In this document: positions 2,304 to 14,702 of the stretch, piece after piece
Layout: every line of letters begins with the position of its first letter
Numbering within the stretch: position 1 is the first letter of the stretch
From: Nitrospirota bacterium
GTDB lineage: Bacteria; Nitrospirota; UBA9217
Assembly: GCA_963749655.1 (NCBI GenBank)
Contig: CAVVOB010000003.1
Span: 1-14,905 of the forward strand
Reading direction: 5' to 3'
Length of the DNA stretch: 14,905 bases
Made by a program: the position numbers and the translations under genes
The notes under the pieces: generated by a model
Seen by the model: the letters and a program-made list of their open reading frames with translations, nothing else
Databases searched by the model: none
Told to the model about the DNA's origin: nothing

Positions 2304-3098
2304 CTATGTTGGTGTCGGCGGTCGAAGCCGGGCGTGGACAAACGCTTTTACCCGATCAAGGCTTGTTTCAATATCGTCTTTGTCGTGAGCCTCGACGGTA
2401 AAGACGGGCACTGGCGCATGATCCTTCACCAGACCGAAAAACTTGTCAAAAGCTATGTTCCCGCGCCCCACAGCCCAGTGCGAATCAGCGGTTCCGTCGT
2501 TATCGTGGAGATGCACTTCCACGAGTTTGGGACCGAGGGCCTCGAACCACCTTTCCATGGGAACCCTCGAAAACAGGTTGAAGTGGCCCGTGTCAAAGCA
2601 AAAGCCGAAATTCGGATCAGCGACACTCTCGATGAGCATTTGAAGAGCATCGGGATCTTCGTCAAAGACGTTTTCCACTGCGACGCGAAGACCGATCTTG
2701 GACGCTGTTTCCATAACCTTGCGCCAGGTGTCGATGCTGTAGTCAAGCCAGACATCCTTGCGGCCGCTGTACCGCCACCGATCATAAGCAGCGTGAAACA
2801 CTACTGCACGCGGCTTCAGTATCGCGGCGACGTTCAAGAGCTGGCGGAACCGCACCTGGGTCACAGAACGCACCATGGGATCGACGGCTCCAGGATTCAA
2901 GTCCATAAACGGAGCATGAAGGGTGAGCTTCGGGTTCCAGTCCAGACGTTCGAGCAGTTTTTCCAGATCATGCTTCTCGATCTGGTCGAGAACGGCCGCG
3001 GAAAGATAGATCTCGAGGTCATATCGTCGAAGTCGAATCAGCTCGAAAAAATCCTTCAGCTTGGGATAGGGGATGTGAACGTGGATAGGCTCCATCAT
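2304..3098 (-). CDS. Sugar phosphate isomerase/epimerase (xylose isomerase-like TIM barrel, AP endonuclease family 2)
   Basis: Motifs TLHAPFMDLNPG, VVFH, VAVEN, CFDTGH, VHLHDNDG..DSH...GRG.I and TVE match the metal-binding pattern of this family. Confidence 0.9.
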   Translation of the reverse strand: MMEPIHVHIPYPKLKDFFELIRLRRYDLEIYLSAAVLDQIEKHDLEKLLERLDWNPKLTLHAPFMDLNPGAVDPMVRSVTQVRFRQLLNVAAILKPRAVVFHAAYDRWRYSGRKDVWLDYSIDTWRKVMETASKIGLRVAVENVFDEDPDALQMLIESVADPNFGFCFDTGHFNLFSRVPMERWFEALGPKLVEVHLHDNDGTADSHWAVGRGNIAFDKFFGLVKDHAPVPVFTVEAHDKDDIETSLDRVKAFVHARLRPPTPT

Positions 3099-3104
3099 CG
3101 ACGA

Positions 3105-3398
3105 TCAGCCTTTGGACGGACATGTGCCGGAGCAAGTTCCTCCCGAGGCACAGCCGGCAGCCGTTTTTTTTACATCTCCGCTCGGCGCATCGCCGGCATT
3201 CTCCGGCTTCCGGTTATGAGACGGGTAATCGGTTGCGTACCAGCCGTTCCCCTTCAGCACAAAAGAAGTCGGCGAAAGCACCTTTCGCACGGTCCCTGTT
3301 TTACACAGTCTGCAGATAGTAAGAATGGGATCGCTGAATTTCTGGATAACCTCGAACCTGCCGCCGCAGGTTTCACACTCGTATTCGTAATTCGGCAT
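3105..3398 (-). CDS. FmdB-family zinc ribbon protein, 97 aa
   Basis: MPNYEYECETCG..FE..QKFSD....C..C......KVLS...F.LKG.GWY.TDY is the FmdB (CxxC_CxxC_SSSS) signature. A GGAGG RBS at 3406-3410 supports the ATG at 3398 over the ORF-track start at 3428. Confidence 0.92.
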   Translation of the reverse strand: MPNYEYECETCGGRFEVIQKFSDPILTICRLCKTGTVRKVLSPTSFVLKGNGWYATDYPSHNRKPENAGDAPSGDVKKTAAGCASGGTCSGTCPSKG

Positions 3399-3448
3399 TA
3401 CAATACCTCCCTCACACTCTCGAAGCATTAACCTGAGCTGGAATCTGT

Positions 3449-4209: not shown

Positions 4210-4353
4210 AGGTGTCCTCCCTGAACACAGAGCCCGATGCAACGGGATAAGAATTACGCAGTCATACTTCACTCTGGTTACGCATTACCTGGCTGACCCT
4301 TCGCTGAAGCCGAGTACGTCAGACCTTCGGCCTACTGCAAATTCACATGGTAA

Positions 4354-4382
4354 ATATTAATAAGTGCACCTTCTATTGTCAA
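4354..4382 (-). promoter_or_regulatory. Sigma70-type promoter upstream of the membrane protein and its structured leader
   Basis: Minus strand TTGACA (4382-4377), 17-nt spacer, TAATAT (4359-4354). Confidence 0.65.
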
Positions 4383-4566
4383 AGAAATTCGCAACAAAAT
4401 ACATCTTTTCAGAAAAGTTGCAATTTACAGATAAGCTGATATATATAATTTGAGTGATGGTTCGCCTGAATACTTATTCATTTAAGAATGTATCTTGGCA
4501 CGGCACAGGGACGCAATTATCGTGCGAAGGGAGGTCCTCGTGCATACCAGCTACAGCAACACCCTA

Positions 4567-4803
4567 TTATTTTTTTATACTGCGGGCCTTATGGCAGACG
4601 AGACACTGTTCCTTTGGAGGATGGGTACTCTTGAGCGGCGACCGCTTATCCGCGCCGTGACATTCAAGACACAGGACGTTCGACGACGCGTTTCTGTGCA
4701 GGGCATCGTCAGGAAGGGCGGGAACGTTGTTCCGGGAAGAAAGATAAAAAAGGAAAGCAAGCACCGCGCAGGCGGTAATAATGACGGGTATCGAACTCTT
4801 CAT
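4567..4803 (-). CDS. Small diheme cytochrome c (DHC2/NapB-like), 78 aa
   Basis: N-terminal signal/anchor helix, two CxxCH motifs (CLECH, CLVCH), candidate distal His ligands in P.D..H and HPP, and a GGAGG RBS at 4811-4815. Confidence 0.88.
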   Translation of the reverse strand: MKSSIPVIITACAVLAFLFYLSSRNNVPALPDDALHRNASSNVLCLECHGADKRSPLKSTHPPKEQCLVCHKARSIKK

Positions 4804-4985
4804 GTCAGAACCTCCGAAAACAATCTCGAACAGAATATCAGGGGCTGATCCAGCCGCGTCAGCCCGGCCTTATGACTGCTCAACACGCGGACAATAGTAT
4901 GCTCGCCAAAGAGATGCCTGTCAAGTCTGCCCCCGGTGACATCCTGCGAAATCCGGCTCCCATTGTATATTCCTTGCCGGCTTTC

Positions 4986-4994
4986 TGATATAAT
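4986..4994 (+). promoter_or_regulatory. Extended -10 promoter element of the giant fusion gene
   Basis: TGaTATAAT at 4986-4994 with no good -35 at standard spacing. RBS AAGGAG at 5073-5078 precedes the ATG at 5084. Confidence 0.5.
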
Positions 4995-5083
4995 TTTTAT
5001 AGCACGAAATTATCAAGCAAGCCTTTCTCAACACCCCAGAGAATTCATTCCTGAACGAGCAAGCCTTAGGAAAAGGAGTCAGC

Positions 5084-6700
5084 ATGATACAGTACAAATT
5101 CGACGTTGTGGTCGTCGGAGCCGGACCGGCAGGAGTGGCTGCCGCGGGCAGCCTGGCCCGTGCCGGCATTTCGGTAGCCCTCCTCGAAGCAGGCGTCTAT
5201 GCAGGTGCGGAAAACTGGTCCGGCTGTGTATATTTTACCGAGAACCTGGCAGCAGAGGACTGCTTCGGAAACGAGTCAGTCGAGGCCGCTCCCTTTGAAC
5301 GGCGGGTCACGCGGCGCGGAACGCTGCTGCATAACGGTCTGGACGTCCTCGGTCTGGAGGTCCGCGATTCCACTCTCTTTAAGAATTGCTACACGGTCCT
5401 GAGGCCGGTCTATGATCCCTACTTTGCCCACCTTGCGCGCTTGAAGGGCGCAGTGCATCTGACGGCGACGACCGTCACCGCCCTAATCCGGAAAAATGGC
5501 AGGGTCATCGGCGTTGAGACGAACCGGGGTCCGCTGTACGCCGACATGGTCTTTCTTGCCGAAGGAGACGCTTCGCACCTGGTCCGCTCGGAGCAGCTCG
5601 AGCGAACGGCCCGCCCGCACTACATGCAGGGCGTCAAGGCGGTGCTGTCGCTCCCTTCTCAGGAAATCGAAACCAGGTTCGGGCTCGCTTCCGGCGAAGG
5701 CGCCGCCTACGAGCTTCTTGTCCGGAATGCGTCGATCGCAGGGAGAACCGCCCGGCTGAATGTCGGCGGTTTTCTGTATACCAACCGCGACTCCCTCTCC
5801 CTCGGCTATGTCCTTCCCCTGGCCAACCTGCGCAACAATTATCACGGCGATCATGACAGGCTGTTCGAATGGCTGCGCGGCCTGCCCCTCCTCCGTGAAT
5901 TTACCCACGATGCGAAGCTCACGGCGTACGGCACCAAGATCATCAGAAGCGGCGGATGGAACGAGCGGCCCGTGCTCGTCCAGGACGGCCTCGCTGTCGG
6001 CGGCGCTTCGACCGGGCTCGGGATAGACATCCCTTTTCCGAATTTCACCGGGCCGGCCTCGGCATCAGGGCTGTACTTCGCCCGGGCAGCGATCGCCCTC
6101 CTGAGGGATGGAAAAGCGCCTGACAGTCGCAACCTTTCCCGGGCATACCTTGAACCCCTCCGGGAGAGCGTGTACGGAAAGAATGCCCGCTATCTTTCAC
6201 GATGGCCTGCCTATTTCGGGAAGTCGAGCACCCTCTTCGGCAGGACTATAGACATCGTCTGCGGCACCTCGCACTTTATTGCGTCAGGCAGCCTGTTGAA
6301 CACCGGCCGGTTCCTGCGGAGCCACCTTCTCTCGTTCCGGGGTCTCCGCGACTCGATCAGCGACACCCTGCGCGCCGTCACCAGCCTCAGGCTCTGGAAG
6401 CCGATCGCCTTGTCGGCGCTCAACCCCGCAACAATCGGACAATGGATCGCCAACCTTGCGAAGAAGCCGGCGTTGCCCGATCCAGAGCTCGTCATAACCC
6501 TGAAGATAACCGGCCAGGATGTCGATGGGAGAAAACTGCCGTGGCCGGCGGGATCGCTGATCAGGCGTCTTTCCCCGGCGCTTCTTCAAGCCCTCAAAAC
6601 AGTCTATGCCAATAACGACCGCCCCATGATGGGCAAAGCTGCAGAAGCCGTCCATTTCCTGATCCGAGGACTGCGGCTCACCGACCTCGTCATCCTCCCT
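5084..6700 (+). other. Domain of the fusion: FixC/ETF:quinone oxidoreductase-like FAD flavoprotein (about aa 1-540; boundaries approximate)
   Basis: Rossmann GAGPAG, GAENWSG, APFERRV, YTVLRP..D, MQGVK, IE.RF, GGFLYTN.DS.SLG are all FixC-type motifs. Confidence 0.85.
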
Positions 6701-9700
6701 GCCTTCAGCATAGTTCTCCTGTTCCTGTCGGCCTGGTCGGCGCTATGGGACGCTTTTCGTTATTACGTGCTCAAAACGCCTGTGGCAACAATCCTTGCTG
6801 AACCTGTTATGGCGTACAACGAACTCCTGAGGAAGGCACGCGACCTCGATGCGATCAAGCCGGAATTGAGCCTGGAAGCAAAGCTCGCAACTAATACCTA
6901 CCGCACGGGAAGCGCATCTCACATCCGAACGATCTGGCCGGAAGCAATCTCCGATCATACGGAGATGTCGAAGGCCGGGCTCTGGTGGGTCTGTCCAGCC
7001 CGCGTTTACGGTTATGACGCTCCCCTCTTCGGCCGGGGAAAAGTGACGGTAAACTTCGAGAACTGCATCAAGTGTGAATCCTGCTGGAGAGCAGAACCGG
7101 ACCGCGTGTTCTGGGGAAGACATACGGATCACAAGCTGATCTATCGGCCCGAAACCGCAGCCATCATCGACCTTCTGAAAGCGCGTCGGGAACCGGTCCT
7201 GGTCGGGCAGGGAAGCGGCAAATCTCCGGTGCCGATGACTCGGGAACTTTGGTACCTGGACGAGGATAGCAGGCGCGCAGGCAAGGCCGTTCAGCAGGCG
7301 TTGGCTGCTTTTCGTGATGCAATCCAACATCTGCCGGCATCAGCTGACAAGGGCCGGCTCGGCTGGCCGCTCCTGCTCGGGAAAAGACTGGCAGAGCGGC
7401 TGAGACGGTTCGAAACAATCCTCGCGGACAGCCGCTGGCACGATCTGGCAGATACCATCAGGACGGAGAGAACCGATATCGAACTCAAACTTACTGAAAA
7501 ACGGCTCTTCCACGCTCTTTACGCCTGCAACAGGCTTGAACAGAGGCTTGCGGTTCTGGATGAAGAAAAGGACGGAGCCGTCTCCTCAGCAACTTCCCGG
7601 ACAGCCCAGAGGAAAACCGTTGAACATGCTTCAAACGACGCAGCTGCAGTCTTCCCTGATCGAACGGTCAAACAGTGGGAAGAGGATTCCATGCCTGAAC
7701 CGTGGGCAGAGACTCTCCGGACCTTCATCGCCAGTCACCAGTCCGACCCAATCGGGACGGTCCGCTCTCTCGCTTTGGTGAACCCGGCTCTCGGCCTTGT
7801 TGCCGCCCACCATTTCTGCGCAATCAACATTCTCTCTCAAGCCGGCAGAAAACTCGGGGAAGGCATCTCCGCGGTTCGTGCCGACCATCTCGACATCGAG
7901 GAAGCCGACACCGTCCGGATCAGAGGCGTACTTCCCCTCATCCCCTGCGCAGCGACCCGAATGCTGTTGCTTTTAAACCGAAGGAGGGGATACCTCGTTC
8001 CGCTGGGTTCACCCGGTGTTACCGTCACGCCTTCGCCGTCGATCGGGTTCCGAGCAGCAGGACTTTCGGAGGTTGCTCTCGACTGCACGATAAAAAAGGA
8101 TGCTGTTTCGATACGAGAAGGAGAACCGGCGCCCGCTCCTGCCTCCTACCTTGCCATCGCCCTGGGGACGACTGATTATCTCTCCGGGCGCATCAAAGAA
8201 CATGCAACCGGAAGGGTCCAATTCCCCGGCCAGATGCTGGACACCGAAGGAAGGGACGGAATTGCCAAGCTGGGAGCCGTAAAGGCCCTCATCGCGCGGA
8301 CCGAAGCCTGGCGTCTTTTACTGCAGGCGTTGTATGACTCTTATTCTGCAATCCGCGATGAACGGGCCGCGTTGGAACTCGATCTTCTCAGTTCAACTGT
8401 TGCAGCCCTTGCCTTCAGTCCGGACCCCGGCACCATCGGATACGATGCGGGCCAGGTGTTCGGCGGCTTTGCTTATTCCGAGGACGACCTTCTCTCGCGC
8501 TTCTACCGCGACAGCGCTCTATTCCGGTTCCTCCCTCCAGGGCTGGACGCATCAGTGCGCCTGCATAGGCTGCTCAGTTCGCGAAAGGCCGGTGAAACGC
8601 CGCGACTGCACACCGTAGTTACAGGAGAACCTCTGAGTAATGATTCACAGCGGCTGGCGGAGCTTCACGGCGCATGCCTCAACCTGCCGCCGGGCATTGA
8701 CAGCGCACTTGCCGGAGAAGCGCAAGCCCTCGCACTGGGGCTTCGCCTGTTTCTCTCCGCGATCGAAGAGGGGCTGAACAGCGGGCGCAGCATGGAGATG
8801 GAATCAGCTGCCCTGGCTGTGCTGCTCAAACAGCTGGAGCAGCGGCTGGCCTCGGCCCGGCTTTCCGCAGCTCGGGGGCGGGTACTGCCGACGGCATTCT
8901 TCCCCATCGAACCAGCAGAAAAGGCAGTCGTCCTGGATATGGACTACGAATTGTTCTGCGGTGCTCCCGGCGCGCCGCACGCGTCGGGCAGTTTCCTGTC
9001 AACGGCCTTTGATCGTTCTCCCCGGTTCACTCCGGAAATGCAGCTGCACGATCCCCGGTTGCGTGCTCGATGGACCGAACTGGTGGACTGGTTCAAAGGG
9101 CACTGCAAGGGCCGGAAGTTCGACGGTCTCGACATCGAACGGGCCATCGAGAAGATCCACCGTTTGCCTGACTTCGTTATCGATGCGGTCAAAAAGCACA
9201 AGTGGCTCGCGACGTACATACCGAAATCAGAGGATGGCCTGGGCTGGCACAAGGCGGAATACTATCTCCTGAACTCCGCTGCCGGCAGCTTCGGTGACGC
9301 AGGCATCAACCTCTTGATCATGGCGAGCACCAGTATCGGCACGACACCCATTCTTCTCGGTCTGGAGGAGGAACTGCCGCGCGTCCGCGAAGAGCTTGCG
9401 CCTCTTGCGGAAGATGAAAAAAAGCTTGGCGAGATCGGCGCACGACTGGGTAAAATCACCGGCACTTTGTCCAATCCCAATCCTTCCTGGATAAAAAAGG
9501 AATACGAAGCGGTCATGCAGCTCGTGGAGAAACGCATCCGCCGGACCCGCGTGGTCAAATATCTGGCAGCCAATTTCCTGCGCGCTTTCTACGGGGCGGG
9601 CATCGCCGGCCGTCGGGGGGACTTCGGAAACTTCACTTCAAACCTCAGGCATGCAGGCGATCTTTTTACCAGGCTCATGCCCGACGTGCGCGCGGCCCTC

Positions 9701-12700
9701 GACGAGCTCCCCCGTCGCGAGCGTTGTCATCGATTGTTCCTCCGCTCTCTTGGCCATGGCGGGGTGAGCGCCTTTGCCCTGACCGAGCCGACAGCGGGCT
9801 CGGATTCTGGCGGCGTCAAGACTACGGCAAAACTCCACAGCACAAAACTGACCGCGCTTTCCGACGGCAGATATGCCTTCCGCCTCAATGATCAGGACGA
9901 GACCAGTACACGTTACCTCATAGATGCGGACCGGGTCGTTTTCCAGGACCGCGGAGCCGCGTACCGAACGCCTGATGGACAGACTGCTTCCATCAGATAT
10001 GACAAATATGACTACACCACGGACCAGGGAGTGCGGTATTACGAGTTAGAGGGGAAATCCTGCGAATTCCACGATATCGGCCAGATCCGCAAAACGGACG
10101 ACGGGATGGCCTATGAATACTATGCCCTCACAGGCGCCAAGATGTGGATCACGAACGGCAGCATCGCGACCCAGTTCTGTCTCTATGCCCAGACGGCCGA
10201 AGGTGTGACCGGCTTCCTCGTGGACCGGCACAGCGAGGGTCTGAAGGTCGGCGCCGACGAAAAAAAGATGGGCCAGCGCGGATCGCCCACAAACGAAATC
10301 TCGATCGACAGCGTGCGCGTGCCGCGGGAAGCCGTGATCGGGTATGAGGGGCACGGCCAGGTAAACGCCCTCGAGACGCTGAACGTAGGACGATGCGGCC
10401 TGGCTGTGGTTTCCGGCGCCCTCATGCGCAAGCTCATGCACGAGGCAGTCGCCGCCGTTCCCGCCAAACCGGAGCGCGATGCCCTGCTCGGCGAGGCCGC
10501 TGCCATCATGTTCGGGAGCGAGTCGCTGGCCCACTATTTAATAGGCCTGTTCGACCGGCCCCATGAATCGGTGCGCATGGAATCGGCTATTGCCAAATAC
10601 GTCTGTTCCGAAGACATTCACGAACTGCTGACGCTTGTAGAGCGCGCCTTCGGCCCCGCAGGCCTGACCGAGAAGTTCCTGCTTGAGAAAGCCCGCCGCG
10701 ACAGCCGCATCCTCACCATCTATGAAGGCACGAACGAGGTCCAGCGGTTCCTGATCCTGAAAGATCTTATCGCGCTGGCCCCGAAGTGGCCGGAACTTGC
10801 TCTGCCGGAAAACGACAAGACCGGCCGCATACTCGGTGAATGGAAAAACAGACTCCGGACACATGCGCGGTCTGCAGCCGACCTCCTGGGCGACAGTGCT
10901 TGGTCGGATGCCATGCTCCAGCCCGCGCTCTTCCCGCTCGCCGAAATGGCGGGCGAGATCCTGCGGCTGGAATGTATTTACTACCGGAAGGAATGGCTTG
11001 AAGCCAGGACCGCTCTGCTCGGAGAGAGCTACACCCGTCCCCTTCTCGCCGCCGGAACGCGTGCCGCCGAGCGGGCGCTGTCGCGGCTGGCCTTCCTCGA
11101 CGCATCCTACGCATCTGCGCAGGACCTCATCAGGAACGGCCTTGACATGCCCGAGGTCGTGGTTGCAGACGCGGCTCTTGACGCGAAGGAGACCGGCAGC
11201 TCCGCGCCGGCTCCGCAAGGAGTCCTCAAGGTCCCCGTCCGCATCCTGGCAGTCATACGGCCCGTTGCCGACCTTCCTCCCCGTCCACGCCTGTTGGACG
11301 GAACGATTCAGGAGTTAGTCTGGCGCATCAATACCCGGGACCTGGCCGGACTCACCCAGGCGCTGGACCTTAAAACTGCGGGGAACGCCCCGGTACAGGT
11401 TGACGTACTCATGCCCGGTGGACCGGAGCATGATGATCTCCTGAAGATGGCCGGTCAGGCCCGTGCAGACCGTCTGCACCGGATTAACCTCGATCCTGCC
11501 GCGGCGCCCCGGGAATTGATAGCGGCAATACAAAGCTGCGAGGCCGGGCAGCCGTTCGATATTATAATCACCGGCGCCGAGTCTTCTGATGGAGAACGAG
11601 GCCTTGGGACTTTTCTTGCCGGCGCTCTCAAGTGCAGCCACTATTATCAAGACCGCCTCGAAGTCGGACCAAACGGAACCGGGTTCGGTTCTATTAAGCC
11701 GCCGGCAGTGATCAGCATCTCCGCCTCTGCCGCGGAACTGGAAACAACCATGGTCCGGACGGTGGACGCCTTTTATTCCAGCATTCGCGTGTTAGACTCA
11801 TCTCAGCAGCGCAAAGCCCTTCCGGTCAAATTTTCCCTTCCTGCCGCATTGGAGGTGAAGAAAACAGCTATCACCGGGGTACGGCAGGCGGCGGATTACC
11901 TGCGCTCCTGCGCTGCAACGACCAAGGCATCGGCTGTTCCTGACCATGTCGACGACATTCCGCGGGGGGCACTGGACGGCACCAACGCCGTATGGGCAAT
12001 CCTTGACCCGCGGGAACCCAAGTCCAATCTCGCCGTTCTCAGGGCTGCGCACCTCGCCGCCGGGCTCGTCTCGCAGGAGGTCCATGTCGCCATTCCCGCC
12101 CCCCGAAACATGTTCCCGCAACTGGTCGGTTTTGCACGGGCTCACGGAGCAAGGCGTGCATTCTGTCTGGACACGAATGACGGCAGTCTTTCGAACGATG
12201 GTCAGCGTGAACTGCTCCGGGCCATCGTGAAAGACGCCGGCACACTGATCATTGCCGGGAAGGAGTGGCAGGGATCCTTCTCGTACACTGCGGGAGAGCT
12301 GCATTCTCCGGAGGTTCGGGCGCTGGTGTGCTCCGGCGTAACGGCGCTGGAACGGGGCTCGGAGGGACTGCTTACCTTCTCGTTGCCGGCATACGAAGGA
12401 ATGCTCGTTCGGCACTGCATGTGGCAGGGGGGGTCGGCGCTGGTGACCGTGGCCGCCGAAGCAGACTTCCCCGCGGCAGGCCGTAGCAGCGAATTCAGCG
12501 CCGTTATCGCCGACCTCCCTCTCTCACCCGGCTGGGTCAGGCCCCTCAGGCAGATCGCAGCGCCGTCGCTTTCGCAGGCCGAGGTGATCATCGATCTCGG
12601 CTACGGCATCCGCGACCGCGCCGGCCTCGGGCTGGCCGAGGAATTGAAACGCACCCTGGAGAGCATGGGACTCGAACCGATGTTCGGCGCCACGCGCAAA

Positions 12701-12973
12701 GTTACCCAGGACCTGAAGCTCTTGCCGCTCGAAGCACAGATCGGCCAGACAGGCGTCCGCGTTAATCCGAAGGTCATCATCGCCCTGGGCATCTCCGGCG
12801 CTCCCCAGCACGTCGACTATATCGCGTCACGTGCGGAAATCCTGTGCTTCAACAAGGATGCCGACGCGCCGCTGATGATGCTCAACGAGGTCCGATCCGT
12901 TCCCCGGGTGCATCCGATCGCCGGCGATCTGTTCGTGACTGTTCGGGAGCTTATTGCAGAACTGAAACGATGA
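5084..12973 (+). CDS. 2629-aa multidomain fusion: FixC/ETF-QO flavoprotein + FixX-like ferredoxin + two acyl-CoA dehydrogenase domains + ETF beta + ETF alpha
   Basis: Uninterrupted ORF with RBS. Ordered motifs: VVVVGAGPAG and GGFLYTNRDSLSLG (FixC); CPARVY..NCIKCESC (FixX); RVQF and QVFGG.AY....SRFYRD (ACAD1); FALTEP.AGSD, GAKMWITNG, KKMGQRGS, IYEGTNEVQR (ACAD2); RILAVIRPV and DIIITG.ESSDG (ETF beta); GATR, QIGQTG, GISGAPQH, NKD..AP, GDLF (ETF alpha). Confidence 0.93.
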   Translation: MIQYKFDVVVVGAGPAGVAAAGSLARAGISVALLEAGVYAGAENWSGCVYFTENLAAEDCFGNESVEAAPFERRVTRRGTLLHNGLDVLGLEVRDSTLFKNCYTVLRPVYDPYFAHLARLKGAVHLTATTVTALIRKNGRVIGVETNRGPLYADMVFLAEGDASHLVRSEQLERTARPHYMQGVKAVLSLPSQEIETRFGLASGEGAAYELLVRNASIAGRTARLNVGGFLYTNRDSLSLGYVLPLANLRNNYHGDHDRLFEWLRGLPLLREFTHDAKLTAYGTKIIRSGGWNERPVLVQDGLAVGGASTGLGIDIPFPNFTGPASASGLYFARAAIALLRDGKAPDSRNLSRAYLEPLRESVYGKNARYLSRWPAYFGKSSTLFGRTIDIVCGTSHFIASGSLLNTGRFLRSHLLSFRGLRDSISDTLRAVTSLRLWKPIALSALNPATIGQWIANLAKKPALPDPELVITLKITGQDVDGRKLPWPAGSLIRRLSPALLQALKTVYANNDRPMMGKAAEAVHFLIRGLRLTDLVILPAFSIVLLFLSAWSALWDAFRYYVLKTPVATILAEPVMAYNELLRKARDLDAIKPELSLEAKLATNTYRTGSASHIRTIWPEAISDHTEMSKAGLWWVCPARVYGYDAPLFGRGKVTVNFENCIKCESCWRAEPDRVFWGRHTDHKLIYRPETAAIIDLLKARREPVLVGQGSGKSPVPMTRELWYLDEDSRRAGKAVQQALAAFRDAIQHLPASADKGRLGWPLLLGKRLAERLRRFETILADSRWHDLADTIRTERTDIELKLTEKRLFHALYACNRLEQRLAVLDEEKDGAVSSATSRTAQRKTVEHASNDAAAVFPDRTVKQWEEDSMPEPWAETLRTFIASHQSDPIGTVRSLALVNPALGLVAAHHFCAINILSQAGRKLGEGISAVRADHLDIEEADTVRIRGVLPLIPCAATRMLLLLNRRRGYLVPLGSPGVTVTPSPSIGFRAAGLSEVALDCTIKKDAVSIREGEPAPAPASYLAIALGTTDYLSGRIKEHATGRVQFPGQMLDTEGRDGIAKLGAVKALIARTEAWRLLLQALYDSYSAIRDERAALELDLLSSTVAALAFSPDPGTIGYDAGQVFGGFAYSEDDLLSRFYRDSALFRFLPPGLDASVRLHRLLSSRKAGETPRLHTVVTGEPLSNDSQRLAELHGACLNLPPGIDSALAGEAQALALGLRLFLSAIEEGLNSGRSMEMESAALAVLLKQLEQRLASARLSAARGRVLPTAFFPIEPAEKAVVLDMDYELFCGAPGAPHASGSFLSTAFDRSPRFTPEMQLHDPRLRARWTELVDWFKGHCKGRKFDGLDIERAIEKIHRLPDFVIDAVKKHKWLATYIPKSEDGLGWHKAEYYLLNSAAGSFGDAGINLLIMASTSIGTTPILLGLEEELPRVREELAPLAEDEKKLGEIGARLGKITGTLSNPNPSWIKKEYEAVMQLVEKRIRRTRVVKYLAANFLRAFYGAGIAGRRGDFGNFTSNLRHAGDLFTRLMPDVRAALDELPRRERCHRLFLRSLGHGGVSAFALTEPTAGSDSGGVKTTAKLHSTKLTALSDGRYAFRLNDQDETSTRYLIDADRVVFQDRGAAYRTPDGQTASIRYDKYDYTTDQGVRYYELEGKSCEFHDIGQIRKTDDGMAYEYYALTGAKMWITNGSIATQFCLYAQTAEGVTGFLVDRHSEGLKVGADEKKMGQRGSPTNEISIDSVRVPREAVIGYEGHGQVNALETLNVGRCGLAVVSGALMRKLMHEAVAAVPAKPERDALLGEAAAIMFGSESLAHYLIGLFDRPHESVRMESAIAKYVCSEDIHELLTLVERAFGPAGLTEKFLLEKARRDSRILTIYEGTNEVQRFLILKDLIALAPKWPELALPENDKTGRILGEWKNRLRTHARSAADLLGDSAWSDAMLQPALFPLAEMAGEILRLECIYYRKEWLEARTALLGESYTRPLLAAGTRAAERALSRLAFLDASYASAQDLIRNGLDMPEVVVADAALDAKETGSSAPAPQGVLKVPVRILAVIRPVADLPPRPRLLDGTIQELVWRINTRDLAGLTQALDLKTAGNAPVQVDVLMPGGPEHDDLLKMAGQARADRLHRINLDPAAAPRELIAAIQSCEAGQPFDIIITGAESSDGERGLGTFLAGALKCSHYYQDRLEVGPNGTGFGSIKPPAVISISASAAELETTMVRTVDAFYSSIRVLDSSQQRKALPVKFSLPAALEVKKTAITGVRQAADYLRSCAATTKASAVPDHVDDIPRGALDGTNAVWAILDPREPKSNLAVLRAAHLAAGLVSQEVHVAIPAPRNMFPQLVGFARAHGARRAFCLDTNDGSLSNDGQRELLRAIVKDAGTLIIAGKEWQGSFSYTAGELHSPEVRALVCSGVTALERGSEGLLTFSLPAYEGMLVRHCMWQGGSALVTVAAEADFPAAGRSSEFSAVIADLPLSPGWVRPLRQIAAPSLSQAEVIIDLGYGIRDRAGLGLAEELKRTLESMGLEPMFGATRKVTQDLKLLPLEAQIGQTGVRVNPKVIIALGISGAPQHVDYIASRAEILCFNKDADAPLMMLNEVRSVPRVHPIAGDLFVTVRELIAELKR
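6866..7150 (+). other. Domain of the fusion: FixX-like ferredoxin (about aa 595-689)
   Basis: LEAKLATNTY...SHI start typical of FixX. Cys637 in CPARVY and Cys661/664/667 in NCIKCESC, followed by the conserved W and IY. Confidence 0.85.
7631..8880 (+). other. Domain of the fusion: degenerate acyl-CoA dehydrogenase ACAD1 (about aa 850-1266)
   Basis: SIGFRAA, AIALG, GRVQF, AGQVFGGFAYSED..LSRFYRD are present; the TEP..GSD and IYEG motifs are absent. Confidence 0.8.
9050..11190 (+). other. Domain of the fusion: catalytic acyl-CoA dehydrogenase ACAD2 with two insertions and a VLCAD-like C-terminal helical extension (about aa 1323-2036)
   Basis: YIPKSEDGLG, SIGTTPILLG, FALTEPTAGSD, GAKMWITNG, KKMGQRGSPT, TLNVGR, ESAIAK, RDSRILTIYEGTNEVQR (Glu1881), then Q..LFPLAEMAGEI. 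Confidence 0.9.
11237..11910 (+). other. Domain of the fusion: electron transfer flavoprotein beta-like (about aa 2052-2276)
   Basis: RILAVIRPVAD, INTRDLAGLTQALDLK, ADR, FDIIITGAESSDG, FLAGAL correspond to divergent ETF-beta motifs. Confidence 0.8.
11984..12973 (+). other. Domain of the fusion: electron transfer flavoprotein alpha (about aa 2301-2629)
   Basis: Divergent N-terminal domain (HGARRAF, PAYEG), then a well-conserved FAD domain: LSQAEVII.LGYGI, GATR, QIGQTG, GISGAPQH, NKD.DAP, GDLF. Confidence 0.9.
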
Positions 12974-13203: not shown

Positions 13204-14040
13204 CTAGGGTTCCTGTTTCACGGGAATGGAGAGGATGTTTGCTGTTCCGCCGGACTTCTTGTCGATAAAATCCTTGACCGGTGAATAATCATATCGATCG
13301 AGGCTGCTCGCGATTTCCAGCGCTTCCTCTTCAGAAACATCGTCAGGCGAAATAGTCGAGAGTTCGGGGACGATGTAGGCAAAGCGGCGGTCCAGGTAGT
13401 TCGTCAATTGATTATAGAACTCGCGCTGACATCTGCCGATGAAACCGCCACCGATCAGCACCTTCCTGGCACGCGTGGCCTGAATGAAGGTGTATAGATT
13501 TACCATGTCTTCGGCAGGCAGCGTGCCGCTGCTTGACGCAGCCGACAACACGTAGTAGATCGACCGGCCGCCTGCTGTCACGGTGTTGAGATAAGACACA
13601 TAGGACCGCGGCGCTTTGCTTTCCTCGAAATAGTCGCCGGGGATCACCAGCACCATAACGGCCCCCGACGCTGCGTGGCTTCCGATCATGATCGCTTCGC
13701 TTTCGAACTGCTTTTTTTCCAGCCTGAACTTCGCAGCGTGTGTTGAATCTTTTTCCAGATCCCGAAAAAAATGAGAATAGGCGGGGTGGACGATGATAAA
13801 GATTTCTGCCTGCTCTTTTGACTTTCGTGCGGCATTTGCCGTTTCTGCGGTAAGCTTCTGGACGGAGAGCGCACCGTCGGTGGGAGGAAAGCGGTTCTGC
13901 AACTCGGGGAAATAGGTCGTGGATGGATCAACGCAAACACCGGTCTGATTCTTAAGCATTACGGCAGCAGCATATTTACCACCATTATCGTAACATGCCT
14001 GCGAGCAATAAGGCTCCCCAAAACCACCTTTAATAATCAT
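13204..14040 (-). CDS. Hypothetical protein, probably chimeric: GC-rich body (13204 to about 13929) joined in frame to an unrelated AT-rich 37-codon N-terminus
   Basis: The body reads as a globular alpha/beta protein (IFIIVHPAY, VLVIPG, VLIGGGFIGRCQ) with GC-rich codons. Only 13 of the first 37 codons end in G/C by my count, and they carry a YCSQAC motif. RBS AAGGA lies upstream of 14040. Confidence 0.7.
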   Translation of the reverse strand: MIIKGGFGEPYCSQACYDNGGKYAAAVMLKNQTGVCVDPSTTYFPELQNRFPPTDGALSVQKLTAETANAARKSKEQAEIFIIVHPAYSHFFRDLEKDSTHAAKFRLEKKQFESEAIMIGSHAASGAVMVLVIPGDYFEESKAPRSYVSYLNTVTAGGRSIYYVLSAASSSGTLPAEDMVNLYTFIQATRARKVLIGGGFIGRCQREFYNQLTNYLDRRFAYIVPELSTISPDDVSEEEALEIASSLDRYDYSPVKDFIDKKSGGTANILSIPVKQEP

Positions 14041-14111
14041 AAAAACATCCTTTTAAATAAATATTTAAACTTCTTTTAGTTATAGTAAAGAATTTTATTT
14101 GCAACTATTTT

Positions 14112-14702
14112 TTATAATTTAACCCCAAAGGACAAATTCACCACAGGTAAATAATAATGCGAAAGTCTGCCTGTAGAGTTCCATTCCGAATACCACCATA
14201 ATAACTTTCCGAAAGTTTTACCAAACTTTGCAGGCCAATACCCAAAGCAATAGTAAAATTGCTTTTAAAGCAAAGGTAGTAGCCTAAATCGGGTTCAATT
14301 ATTAAATCTGTCCTGTTATAATCGCTATTGTTATAATCTTTACCAAATGCATATCCCAAGCCAAATTTAACGTCGGCATAAAATCCGTTTAATTTGTTCG
14401 ATAAAAAGGCTGGACCGGCAGCAAAGCCAAATTCGTGCGTTAAAAAATCATCACCATCCTTGTCCAAACGGTATAAAAAATAGTCCAGAAACACCAAAAT
14501 TATTGGTTATAGAGCGATTAACAATAATATGGATTGGCAAATAGCTTACATTCGGATCCATTGCTTTGGATACACCTTGTATTACTAAAGTATGAAGCGG
14601 GTTAATTCCAATAAACATGCTGGCATCCTTACTCTCTGTTTGAGAAATTGAATAATGAAATGTGAAAACACACATAAGAAATGTTAAAACGATCATTTTC
14701 AT
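14112..14702 (-). pseudogene. Bacteroidota-type outer-membrane beta-barrel protein (DUF3575-like), about 196 aa, interrupted by two compensating frameshifts
   Basis: ORFs 14451-14702 (signal peptide, IGINPL) and 14138-14497 (NGFY, GLGY, DLGYY, IALGIG) join by removing one base from the A6 run at 14475-14480. A second shift near 14190-14200 returns to the original frame and gives SEWNSTGRLSHYYLPVVNLSFGVKL* with the stop at 14112-14114. Confidence 0.65.

Follow-up and report, generated by a model that had tools for sequence, protein, structure and literature searches.

Acyl-CoA dehydrogenases (ACADs), electron transfer flavoproteins (ETFs) and ETF:quinone oxidoreductases (ETF-QO or FixCX) are textbook examples of separate partners that meet by diffusion. 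The locus considered here raises the question of whether all these partners may be joined in one polypeptide and, if so, what reaction such a polypeptide would catalyze. The window, that is, the whole analyzed stretch of 14,905 nucleotides, is the entire contig C3 of a Nitrospirota metagenome-assembled genome (MAG; 4.27 Mb, 39 contigs, 86.6% complete). A preliminary description of this DNA had proposed that a single open reading frame (ORF) at 5084-12973 encodes six modules forming an acyl-CoA to ETF to Fe-S/FAD to quinone chain. We find that the fusion is not an assembly artefact and that its architecture represents a widespread family, neither rare nor unique; the protein is probably a membrane-associated enzyme which, in one chain, transfers electrons from an acyl thioester, most likely an acyl-CoA, to quinone by means of three FAD and one [4Fe-4S] cluster. 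The fusion family is uncharacterised; the chemistry itself is expected.

Module composition of the protein

The frame is indeed stop-free from its ATG to the end of the gene (2,629 aa plus stop, P0001), and the start codon is preceded by a Shine-Dalgarno site. The gene has a GC content of 0.58-0.63, as compared to 0.43-0.56 in the flanking stretches. The features are as follows.

5073-5078, forward strand: Shine-Dalgarno-like AAGGAG, read directly, 5 bases 5' of the ATG at 5084
5084-12973, forward strand: the whole ORF (P0001), 2,629 aa plus stop
5084-6283, forward strand (aa 1-400): FixC/EtfC-like FAD-dependent quinone-reductase domain (NCBIfam, 7koe_C), dinucleotide motif GAGPAG at aa 12-17
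6668-6757, forward strand (aa 529-558): hydrophobic helix, putative membrane anchor (Kyte-Doolittle 2.24 over 19 residues)
6866-7153, forward strand (aa 595-690): FixX/ETF-QO-type [4Fe-4S] domain, ligands C637, C661, C664 and C667
7691-8593, forward strand (aa 870-1170): ACAD-1, degenerate ACAD fold (AlphaFold2 fold, PDB profile matches), lacking the catalytic Glu, TEPxxGSD and WITN
9143-10768, forward strand (aa 1354-1895): ACAD-2, catalytically complete (Pfam M and C domains; catalytic E1881 in YEGTNEVQR; motifs in 26/26 rows)
10769-11188, forward strand (aa 1896-2035): helical extension after ACAD-2, resembling the C-terminal region of VLCAD, then a linker (VLCAD alignments, AlphaFold2)
11234-11923, forward strand (aa 2051-2280): ETF-beta-like module (PF01012, profile, Foldseek), "zipper" loop DGERGL at aa 2169-2174
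11972-12970, forward strand (aa 2297-2629): ETF-alpha-like module (Pfam ETF_alpha, profile, Foldseek), FAD domain II at aa 2495-2629 with the invariant R2538

The modules were identified by Pfam, NCBIfam, PDB sequence and profile searches, and by AlphaFold2 models with Foldseek; conservation was assessed in 27 homologues of full length, the most distant at 34% identity, and re-checked on 26 rows (23 distinct loci). From the N- to the C-terminus, the order is the FixC/EtfC-like FAD domain, the hydrophobic helix, the ETF-QO-type [4Fe-4S] domain, the degenerate ACAD-1, ACAD-2, ETF-beta and ETF-alpha. Thus, the six modules stand in the order initially described, but what had been called FixX is an ETF-QO-type single-cluster domain, and the first ACAD is a degenerate pseudo-enzyme.

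The residues expected to bind cofactors and to perform catalysis are invariant in the 27 homologues: GxGxxG of the FixC-like domain (G12, G14, G17), the four cysteines, E1881 in YEGTNEVQR, R2538, and QIGQTG..GISGAPQH in domain II of ETF-alpha; all of them were confirmed on the 26 rows. In this respect the proposed chain is upheld, with the refinement that its ETF carries no second-nucleotide signature.

The N-terminal domain (aa 2-318) matches PRK10015 (6.2e-45) and FixC (4.7e-37) in NCBIfam, reaching neither of the curated cut-offs (153.7 bits vs 466 and 127.7 bits vs 610, respectively), and should be regarded as a relative of FixC/PRK10015 rather than an equivalog. Its best PDB match is Thermotoga maritima FixC (7koe_C, 2.2e-29, aa 4-363), whereas porcine ETF-QO (2gmh) matches much more weakly (5.7e-8).

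In the Fe-S domain, which is ferredoxin-like, the ligands are spaced as C637-x23-C661-x2-C664-x2-C667, with all four cysteines retained in 27/27 rows, and this motif aligns with residues 527-566 of porcine ETF-QO. The Pfam domain Fer4_ETF_QO (PF05187) scores below its cut-off of 24 bits in the protein (14.2 bits) and at 6986-7099 of the DNA (19.6 bits), although distant collinear members of the family pass it (P0114, 33.9 bits; P0110, 27.8 bits). Two cluster motifs are reported for FixX in the available part of PMC6085437, whereas aa 595-690 hold four conserved cysteines only, and the module is better described as an ETF-QO-type single-cluster domain than as FixX.

The segment at aa 529-558 is the sole one in the whole protein with a Kyte-Doolittle window above 1.8. 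Its hydrophobicity is conserved, a window of at least 1.74 being present in the same region in 27/27 alignment rows. The membrane association assumed in the preliminary description has this single conserved helix as its evidence, and the role of a monotopic anchor is our guess.

For ACAD-1, the Pfam match is weak (14.8 bits vs the cut-off of 22.7). However, 10 of the 12 matches of the family profile against PDB are ACADs (E 0.006-0.4), and the AlphaFold2 model has the alpha/beta/alpha three-domain fold of ACADs at a predicted local confidence (pLDDT) of about 85-95. The listed top Foldseek matches of the ACAD model are all ACAD-fold flavoproteins, mostly ACADs, the matching half of the model not being specified. 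In the window, Pro occupies the position aligned to the catalytic Glu of VLCAD; among the alignment rows, 24/26 have P, A, S or T there and 2/26 have Glu. Direct comparison of ACAD-1 with ACAD-2 by hhalign is not significant (E 0.16), and about 180 residues separate the two. Free-standing ACAD-1 was not found in a search that gave only 12 matches, of 275-877 aa, eight of them on contigs shorter than 9 kb. Judging from its sequence, ACAD-1 is a pseudo-enzyme partner and not a second dehydrogenase.

ACAD-2 passes the Pfam cut-offs for Acyl-CoA_dh_M (63.4 bits vs 33.3) and Acyl-CoA_dh_1 (65.9 vs 22.4), but not for the N-domain (16.5 vs 22.9). Its PDB matches include CarC (1.8e-30) and ACAD9/VLCAD (about 1e-28), and those in NCBIfam include Bacillus FadE (3.8e-42), the acryloyl-CoA reductase AcrC (4.7e-33), cyclohexane-1-carbonyl-CoA dehydrogenase (7.7e-31) and prolyl-PCP dehydrogenase (1.1e-21). 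The YEGT motif of ACADs holds the catalytic Glu, while TEPxxGSD and WITN are flavin and substrate motifs; IYEGTNEVQR, ALTEPTAGSD and KMWITN occur in 26/26 rows and align to CarC and MmgC. The domain is interrupted by two family-specific insertions, at aa ~1449-1562 (~114 aa) and ~1583-1677 (~95 aa). Alignments with VLCAD extend to aa 1928, and the helices of the extension (model residues 2-58) are predicted with pLDDT of about 90.

ETF-beta is matched by PF01012 (34 bits vs 26.7), by profile comparison with 4kpu_B (4.3e-14) and 1efv_B (2.4e-9), and by EtfB chains in Foldseek (from 2.2e-8). ETF-alpha is matched by ETF_alpha (61.9 bits vs 27), by profiles of CarE (1.9e-27) and human ETF-alpha (4.1e-23), and in Foldseek by 5ol2_A (5.2e-15) and 7koe_B (TM-score 0.73). 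The AlphaFold2 model of the ETF part has pLDDT 83.7 and pTM 0.75. When aa 2385-2539 alone were compared to PDB by phmmer, only chance matches were obtained.

Recurrence of the fusion

If the fusion had arisen by an error, or if relatives always had separate genes, full-length homologues would not be expected in independent genomes. We observe that 90 of the 119 other database proteins listed cover at least 99% of the query (2,608-2,880 aa, 33-65% identity). A single uninterrupted frame is present in at least 21 genomes of the phylum besides that of the window, and an ORF of 2,529-2,716 aa was found at 24/26 distinct fetched loci, the remaining two being broken. Independent assemblies at 32-65% identity keep the frame open, with collinear modules and with the linkers retained, which is far more than chance would give. 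Since the single open frame is preserved in this many genomes and loci, we may conclude that the fusion is under selection.

Within a sample of Nitrospirota, the gene is present in 38/201 genomes: 30/44 in a Nitrospiraceae-like family (f1), 7/7 in a Leptospirillia family (f5) and 0/149 in 24 other families, the two family names being inferred from source names and identities. One further small phylum has the fusion in 2/6 genomes. Fusions with the same module order, 2,476-3,036 aa long and 33-40% identical, also occur in MAGs which, by their source names, belong to Acidobacteriota, Planctomycetes, Verrucomicrobiae, Gemmatimonadota and Armatimonadetes; several of these distant fusions are situated on contigs of 4-6 Mb. 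Balneolaceae loci (L040, L053) show the conventional arrangement with separate etfB, etfA, fixC-like and ACAD genes. A contig scan with the generic patterns YEGTNEVQ and G[AS]KMWITN mostly returned ordinary ACADs, and full fusions only at L016 and L017.

As for reads across the domain junctions, the matching public contigs are short (123-388 bases, several of them identical) and have no indels; one (11895-12045) bridges the ETF beta/alpha junction, but the material is too sparse to serve as independent proof. A search of public sequencing runs listed no RNA run and only two runs of DNA, in which the fractions of matching words were 0.11 and 0.06. Matches of aa 601-2629 in the ESM Atlas have scores of at most 0.82 and are leads only.

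Some loci deviate. One of the broken loci (G023:C81, L107) has one in-frame TAG, and the other (G173:C14, L111) has several TGA stops or frame changes; in G099:C15:29802-37627 the orthologue is divided within the ACAD-1/ACAD-2 linker into a pair of adjacent ORFs. For all three variants, a natural split, a pseudogene or a sequencing error may be the explanation. Antisense to the orthologue of a GC-rich Leptospirillia-like genome (L106, 6835-14379, reverse strand) runs an open frame of 2,514 aa; it is almost certainly a compositional artefact and calls for caution with ORF callers.

The second nucleotide site of the ETF

Two signatures are informative on whether an ETF base holds a second nucleotide. 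According to the available part of PMC8958531, the six-residue zipper of EtfB reads DGDTAQ where the ETF is bifurcating (216 proteins) and DDDSNQ where it is canonical (449 proteins), and an Arg of EtfA (Rpa Arg165, Afe Arg146) is present in 214/216 and 447/449, respectively. In the window, the zipper aligned to Clostridioides difficile EtfB is DGERGL. Neither DGDTAQ nor DDDSNQ was found in any of the 21 family members of the window's clade, and both the Thr and the Gln of the zipper are missing in all 21. The region equivalent to Arg165 reads FSLPAYEGM, vs FERPIYAGN in Paracoccus EtfA, with Leu2434 falling at chain position 146 of 4kpu_A, assuming an ungapped alignment; the Arg is kept in only 3/21 members, all of them Leptospirillia-like. 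Thus, the ETF carries the signature of neither the bifurcating (group 2) nor the canonical (group 1) type. Of all parts of the protein, the base also shows the lowest conservation (column means of 0.43-0.65, vs 0.80-0.89 for the FAD domain), in contrast to R2538 of the electron-transferring FAD site (ET-FAD) and the invariant block around it.

As both signatures are lost, the ETF would be a one-flavin shuttle and not a Fix-type bifurcating one, and, given the continuity of the chain, its base may do without a nucleotide. Five distant members (P0106, P0109, P0110, P0112, P0120) are different, having the zipper x-D-T-x-Q-G, which is closer to the bifurcating signature; they are also 200-400 aa longer. 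The cofactor content of this distant clade may be different, and the loss of the second nucleotide may not be family-wide, being instead a derived state of the Nitrospirota clade.

Proposed function and its alternatives

From the modules and their conserved residues we infer the following electron path, from an acyl thioester to quinone. ACAD-2 would oxidise the acyl thioester on its own FAD, ACAD-1 serving as its non-catalytic partner in an ACAD pseudo-dimer formed within the chain. Single electrons would be taken up by the mobile FAD domain of the ETF, which is tethered, and passed to the [4Fe-4S] cluster, from which they would proceed to the FixC-like FAD and to a membrane quinone, while the hydrophobic helix would keep the enzyme at the membrane. 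The predicted cofactors are three FAD and one [4Fe-4S] cluster, the ETF being expected to hold neither AMP nor a bifurcating FAD as a second nucleotide. Distant members, assigned by source name to phyla composed mostly of aerobic heterotrophs, retain the module order, in line with a general catabolic role. It also speaks for the scheme that the gene is one of only two ACAD loci in the MAG and has its sole ETF-QO-type Fe-S match.

Several observations weigh against this scheme. There are no adjoining beta-oxidation genes and no conserved metabolic neighbour. The beta domain of ACAD-2 is modelled poorly (AlphaFold2 pLDDT below 50 at model residues 845-925). Every NCBIfam match is far below the equivalog cut-off, and therefore the substrate cannot be assigned from these matches. 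If FixC and the Fe-S domain must touch, the single helix of 22-30 residues that lies between them cannot cross the membrane as an ordinary transmembrane span. The zipper of the five distant members is closer to the bifurcating signature.

A more far-reaching version, which we put forward tentatively and regard as slightly more doubtful than believable, is that of a ~290-kDa single-chain "respirasome feeder". It would bring electrons all the way from acyl-CoA to quinone without the aid of a diffusible carrier; tethering would have made the structural nucleotide of the ETF (AMP or second FAD) dispensable, yielding the first ETF base without a second nucleotide; the pseudo-ACAD would substitute for the second subunit of a dimer; and the family would be ancient, collinear in at least six phyla and uncharacterised.

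The best surviving alternative, still an unlikely one, retains the chemistry but changes the substrate, which would be neither a fatty nor a branched acyl-CoA but, for instance, a ring-CoA or an acyl or aminoacyl group attached to a carrier protein; the protein would then be a dedicated quinone-linked dehydrogenase of a special pathway. The matches of ACAD-2 to cyclohexane-1-carbonyl-CoA and prolyl-PCP dehydrogenases, of similar strength to the others, are consistent with this, as are its two insertions and the failure of the limited search described above to find ACAD-1 as a free-standing protein. However, carrier-protein or pathway genes are not conserved nearby, and a common substrate is suggested by the occurrence of the gene as a solitary single copy in phyla that differ widely.

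Less likely still is the reverse direction, in which a quinol-dependent reductase would act on enoyl-CoA (or another enoyl thioester) for biosynthesis or as an electron sink. The closest characterised ACADs do include ETF-linked reductases, CarC and AcrC, and beta-oxidation genes are not found alongside. The potentials of menaquinol (about -74 mV) and enoyl-CoA (about -10 mV) would also allow such a reduction. On the other hand, no sequence feature fixes the direction, and the known ETF-dependent enoyl-CoA reductases use bifurcating ETFs and NADH, whereas the bifurcating signature is missing here.

Bifurcation of the FixABCX/EtfABCX type appears improbable. If it took place, NADH would reduce the FAD of the ETF base, one electron would go to quinone via the Fe-S cluster and FixC, and the other to ferredoxin for the reductive tricarboxylic acid cycle of Nitrospirota autotrophs. 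The kinship of the N-terminus with the FixC of a bifurcating complex, the top ETF profile matches to bifurcating proteins (CarE and 4kpu_B), the confinement of the gene to two families within the phylum and the D-T-x-Q-G zipper of the five distant members would all agree with that; so would the speculation of Luecker et al. 2013, in the available part of PMC3578206, that ETFs and an unidentified ETF:quinone reductase supply reduced ferredoxin in Nitrospina. Nevertheless, the mismatch of the second site with both signatures argues against an enzyme of this type: bifurcating ETFs have the zipper Thr without exception (100%), whereas it is missing in 21/21 members of the window's clade, and the Arg165 equivalent is Leu in the window. 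The base that would have to hold the bifurcating FAD is the least conserved part of the protein, and the two ACAD modules would be left without a function. Moreover, members of the family are found in MAGs of Acidobacteriota, Verrucomicrobiae, Gemmatimonadota and Planctomycetes. For the window's clade the bifurcating reading was rejected on the published zipper and Arg signature.

Finally, an artefact, either separate operon genes joined by an assembly or frameshift error or a chance open frame in GC-rich DNA, might be suspected from the source being a 14.9 kb MAG contig, from a frameshifted-looking ACAD-EtfB locus elsewhere in the MAG and from long antisense ORFs in GC-rich relatives such as L106, but it is refuted almost beyond doubt by the full-length database proteins and the collinear open frames with retained linkers across the phylum and at the fetched loci, as well as by the short public contigs free of indels and the good Shine-Dalgarno site.

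Gene neighbourhood and the rest of the genome

As the preliminary description had noted, the gene has no beta-oxidation genes alongside: none was found on the contig. The neighbours encode a tetratricopeptide repeat (TPR) protein, a xylose-isomerase-like TIM barrel, a zinc ribbon and unknown proteins. No neighbourhood common to both Nitrospirota families was found. At Leptospirillia-like loci the gene is preceded by obg and proB and followed by pgi, while the other loci have an unknown 192-aa ORF and aspS. As the neighbourhoods are unlinked across the two families, the gene seems to act as a solitary unit.

Several stretches of the window were considered separately. Upstream of the large gene and divergent from it, with no evident link, the reverse strand at 2304-3428 encodes the TIM-barrel protein (264 aa) and then the zinc-ribbon protein (107 aa). 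The ~810 bases immediately 5' of the gene (4273-5083) contain no convincing ORF and are AT-richer than the gene (GC ~0.47-0.48). Downstream, at 13204-14702 on the reverse strand, there are ORFs of 278, 119 and 83 aa with no Pfam matches, in the region where the contig is richest in AT (GC 0.43-0.52); this is possibly foreign or fast-evolving DNA. No Rfam matches were obtained in the window, and its scan for promoters and terminators gave no signal exceeding that in shuffled sequence.

In the MAG, the C-terminal domain of ACADs is found at two loci only, the large gene and an ACAD-etfB-etfA cluster on contig C24. The large gene provides the only ETF-QO-type Fe-S match, and 3-hydroxyacyl-CoA dehydrogenase is represented by one strongly scoring locus. 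The C24 cluster (~159.4-162.8 kb, L002-L004) is a second locus, of conventional organization. Both its ACAD (303 + 103-120 aa) and its etfB (163 + 204 aa) are in two frames each, owing either to frameshifts or to errors of assembly. At 405 aa, the etfA ORF could accommodate an N-terminal ferredoxin domain like that of CarE or LctC.

Comparison with known systems

A close analogy is the ACAD/ETF/ETF-QO chain of aerobic beta-oxidation in mitochondria and many bacteria, with the same four redox modules and, as we propose, the same electron order. The single-cluster motif C-x(23-24)-C-x2-C-x2-C, the ET-FAD Arg and the catalytic Glu of ACAD are conserved in the fusion. Unlike that chain, the fusion is one polypeptide with a hydrophobic helix between the FAD and Fe-S parts, its quinone-reductase part is closer to FixC, and its ETF lacks the DDDSNQ/Arg signature of the AMP site.

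The long ACADs of the VLCAD, ACAD9 and Bacillus FadE type share with ACAD-2 sequence similarity and a helical C-terminal extension, but they have neither its two large insertions nor two ACAD units in one chain between a quinone reductase and an ETF. In the alpha2beta2 heteromeric ACADs of steroid degradation, one subunit is catalytic and the other is not, resembling the pairing of ACAD-2 with ACAD-1.

With FixABCX/EtfABCX of T. maritima (7koe) the fusion shares the N-terminal domain, whose best relative is 7koe_C, and ETF parts matched by 7koe_B and 7koe_A. It differs in having one Fe-S cluster motif instead of the two described for FixX (PMC6085437, available part), in lacking the bifurcating-FAD signature, in having two ACAD modules and in being one chain rather than four subunits. 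The beta-then-alpha order in a single chain is also that of the fused EtfB-EtfA protein SaETF; however, according to the available part of PMC12042025, SaETF is stand-alone and bifurcating with two FADs, whereas here the beta-alpha pair is the C-terminal quarter of a larger protein and has no bifurcating signature. The same part of PMC12042025 mentions a "butyryl-CoA reductase" as a fusion of an ACAD with ETF-alpha domain II. A similar partial joining of an ACAD to the ETF FAD domain is seen in a ~531-aa protein of a Bacillota cluster in the ESM Atlas (score 0.79, a lead only), which is far smaller and has no quinone reductase, Fe-S domain or ETF base.

Significance

The preliminary description knew of no characterised six-module fusion, and our full-text literature search found no description of this one, paper supplements, which possibly list such proteins, being outside the search; yet databases hold a widespread family of these fusions under generic names such as "acyl-CoA dehydrogenase family protein" and "electron transfer flavoprotein-quinone oxidoreductase".

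Reconstituted complexes still serve as the material for studying how the mobile flavin domain of ETF chooses between its donor and acceptor. With all partners joined in a natural and conserved fusion, structural and kinetic work would have a stoichiometrically defined object, and, if the "respirasome feeder" picture is true, one polypeptide would be sufficient for viewing the swing of the ETF domain between donor and acceptor by cryo-EM. The family also indicates that a near-universal nucleotide-site signature can be lost from the ETF base. For Nitrospirota and several soil phyla, the fusion would mark an unannotated electron route into the quinone pool, one which metabolic reconstructions miss because generic names hide it in annotation.

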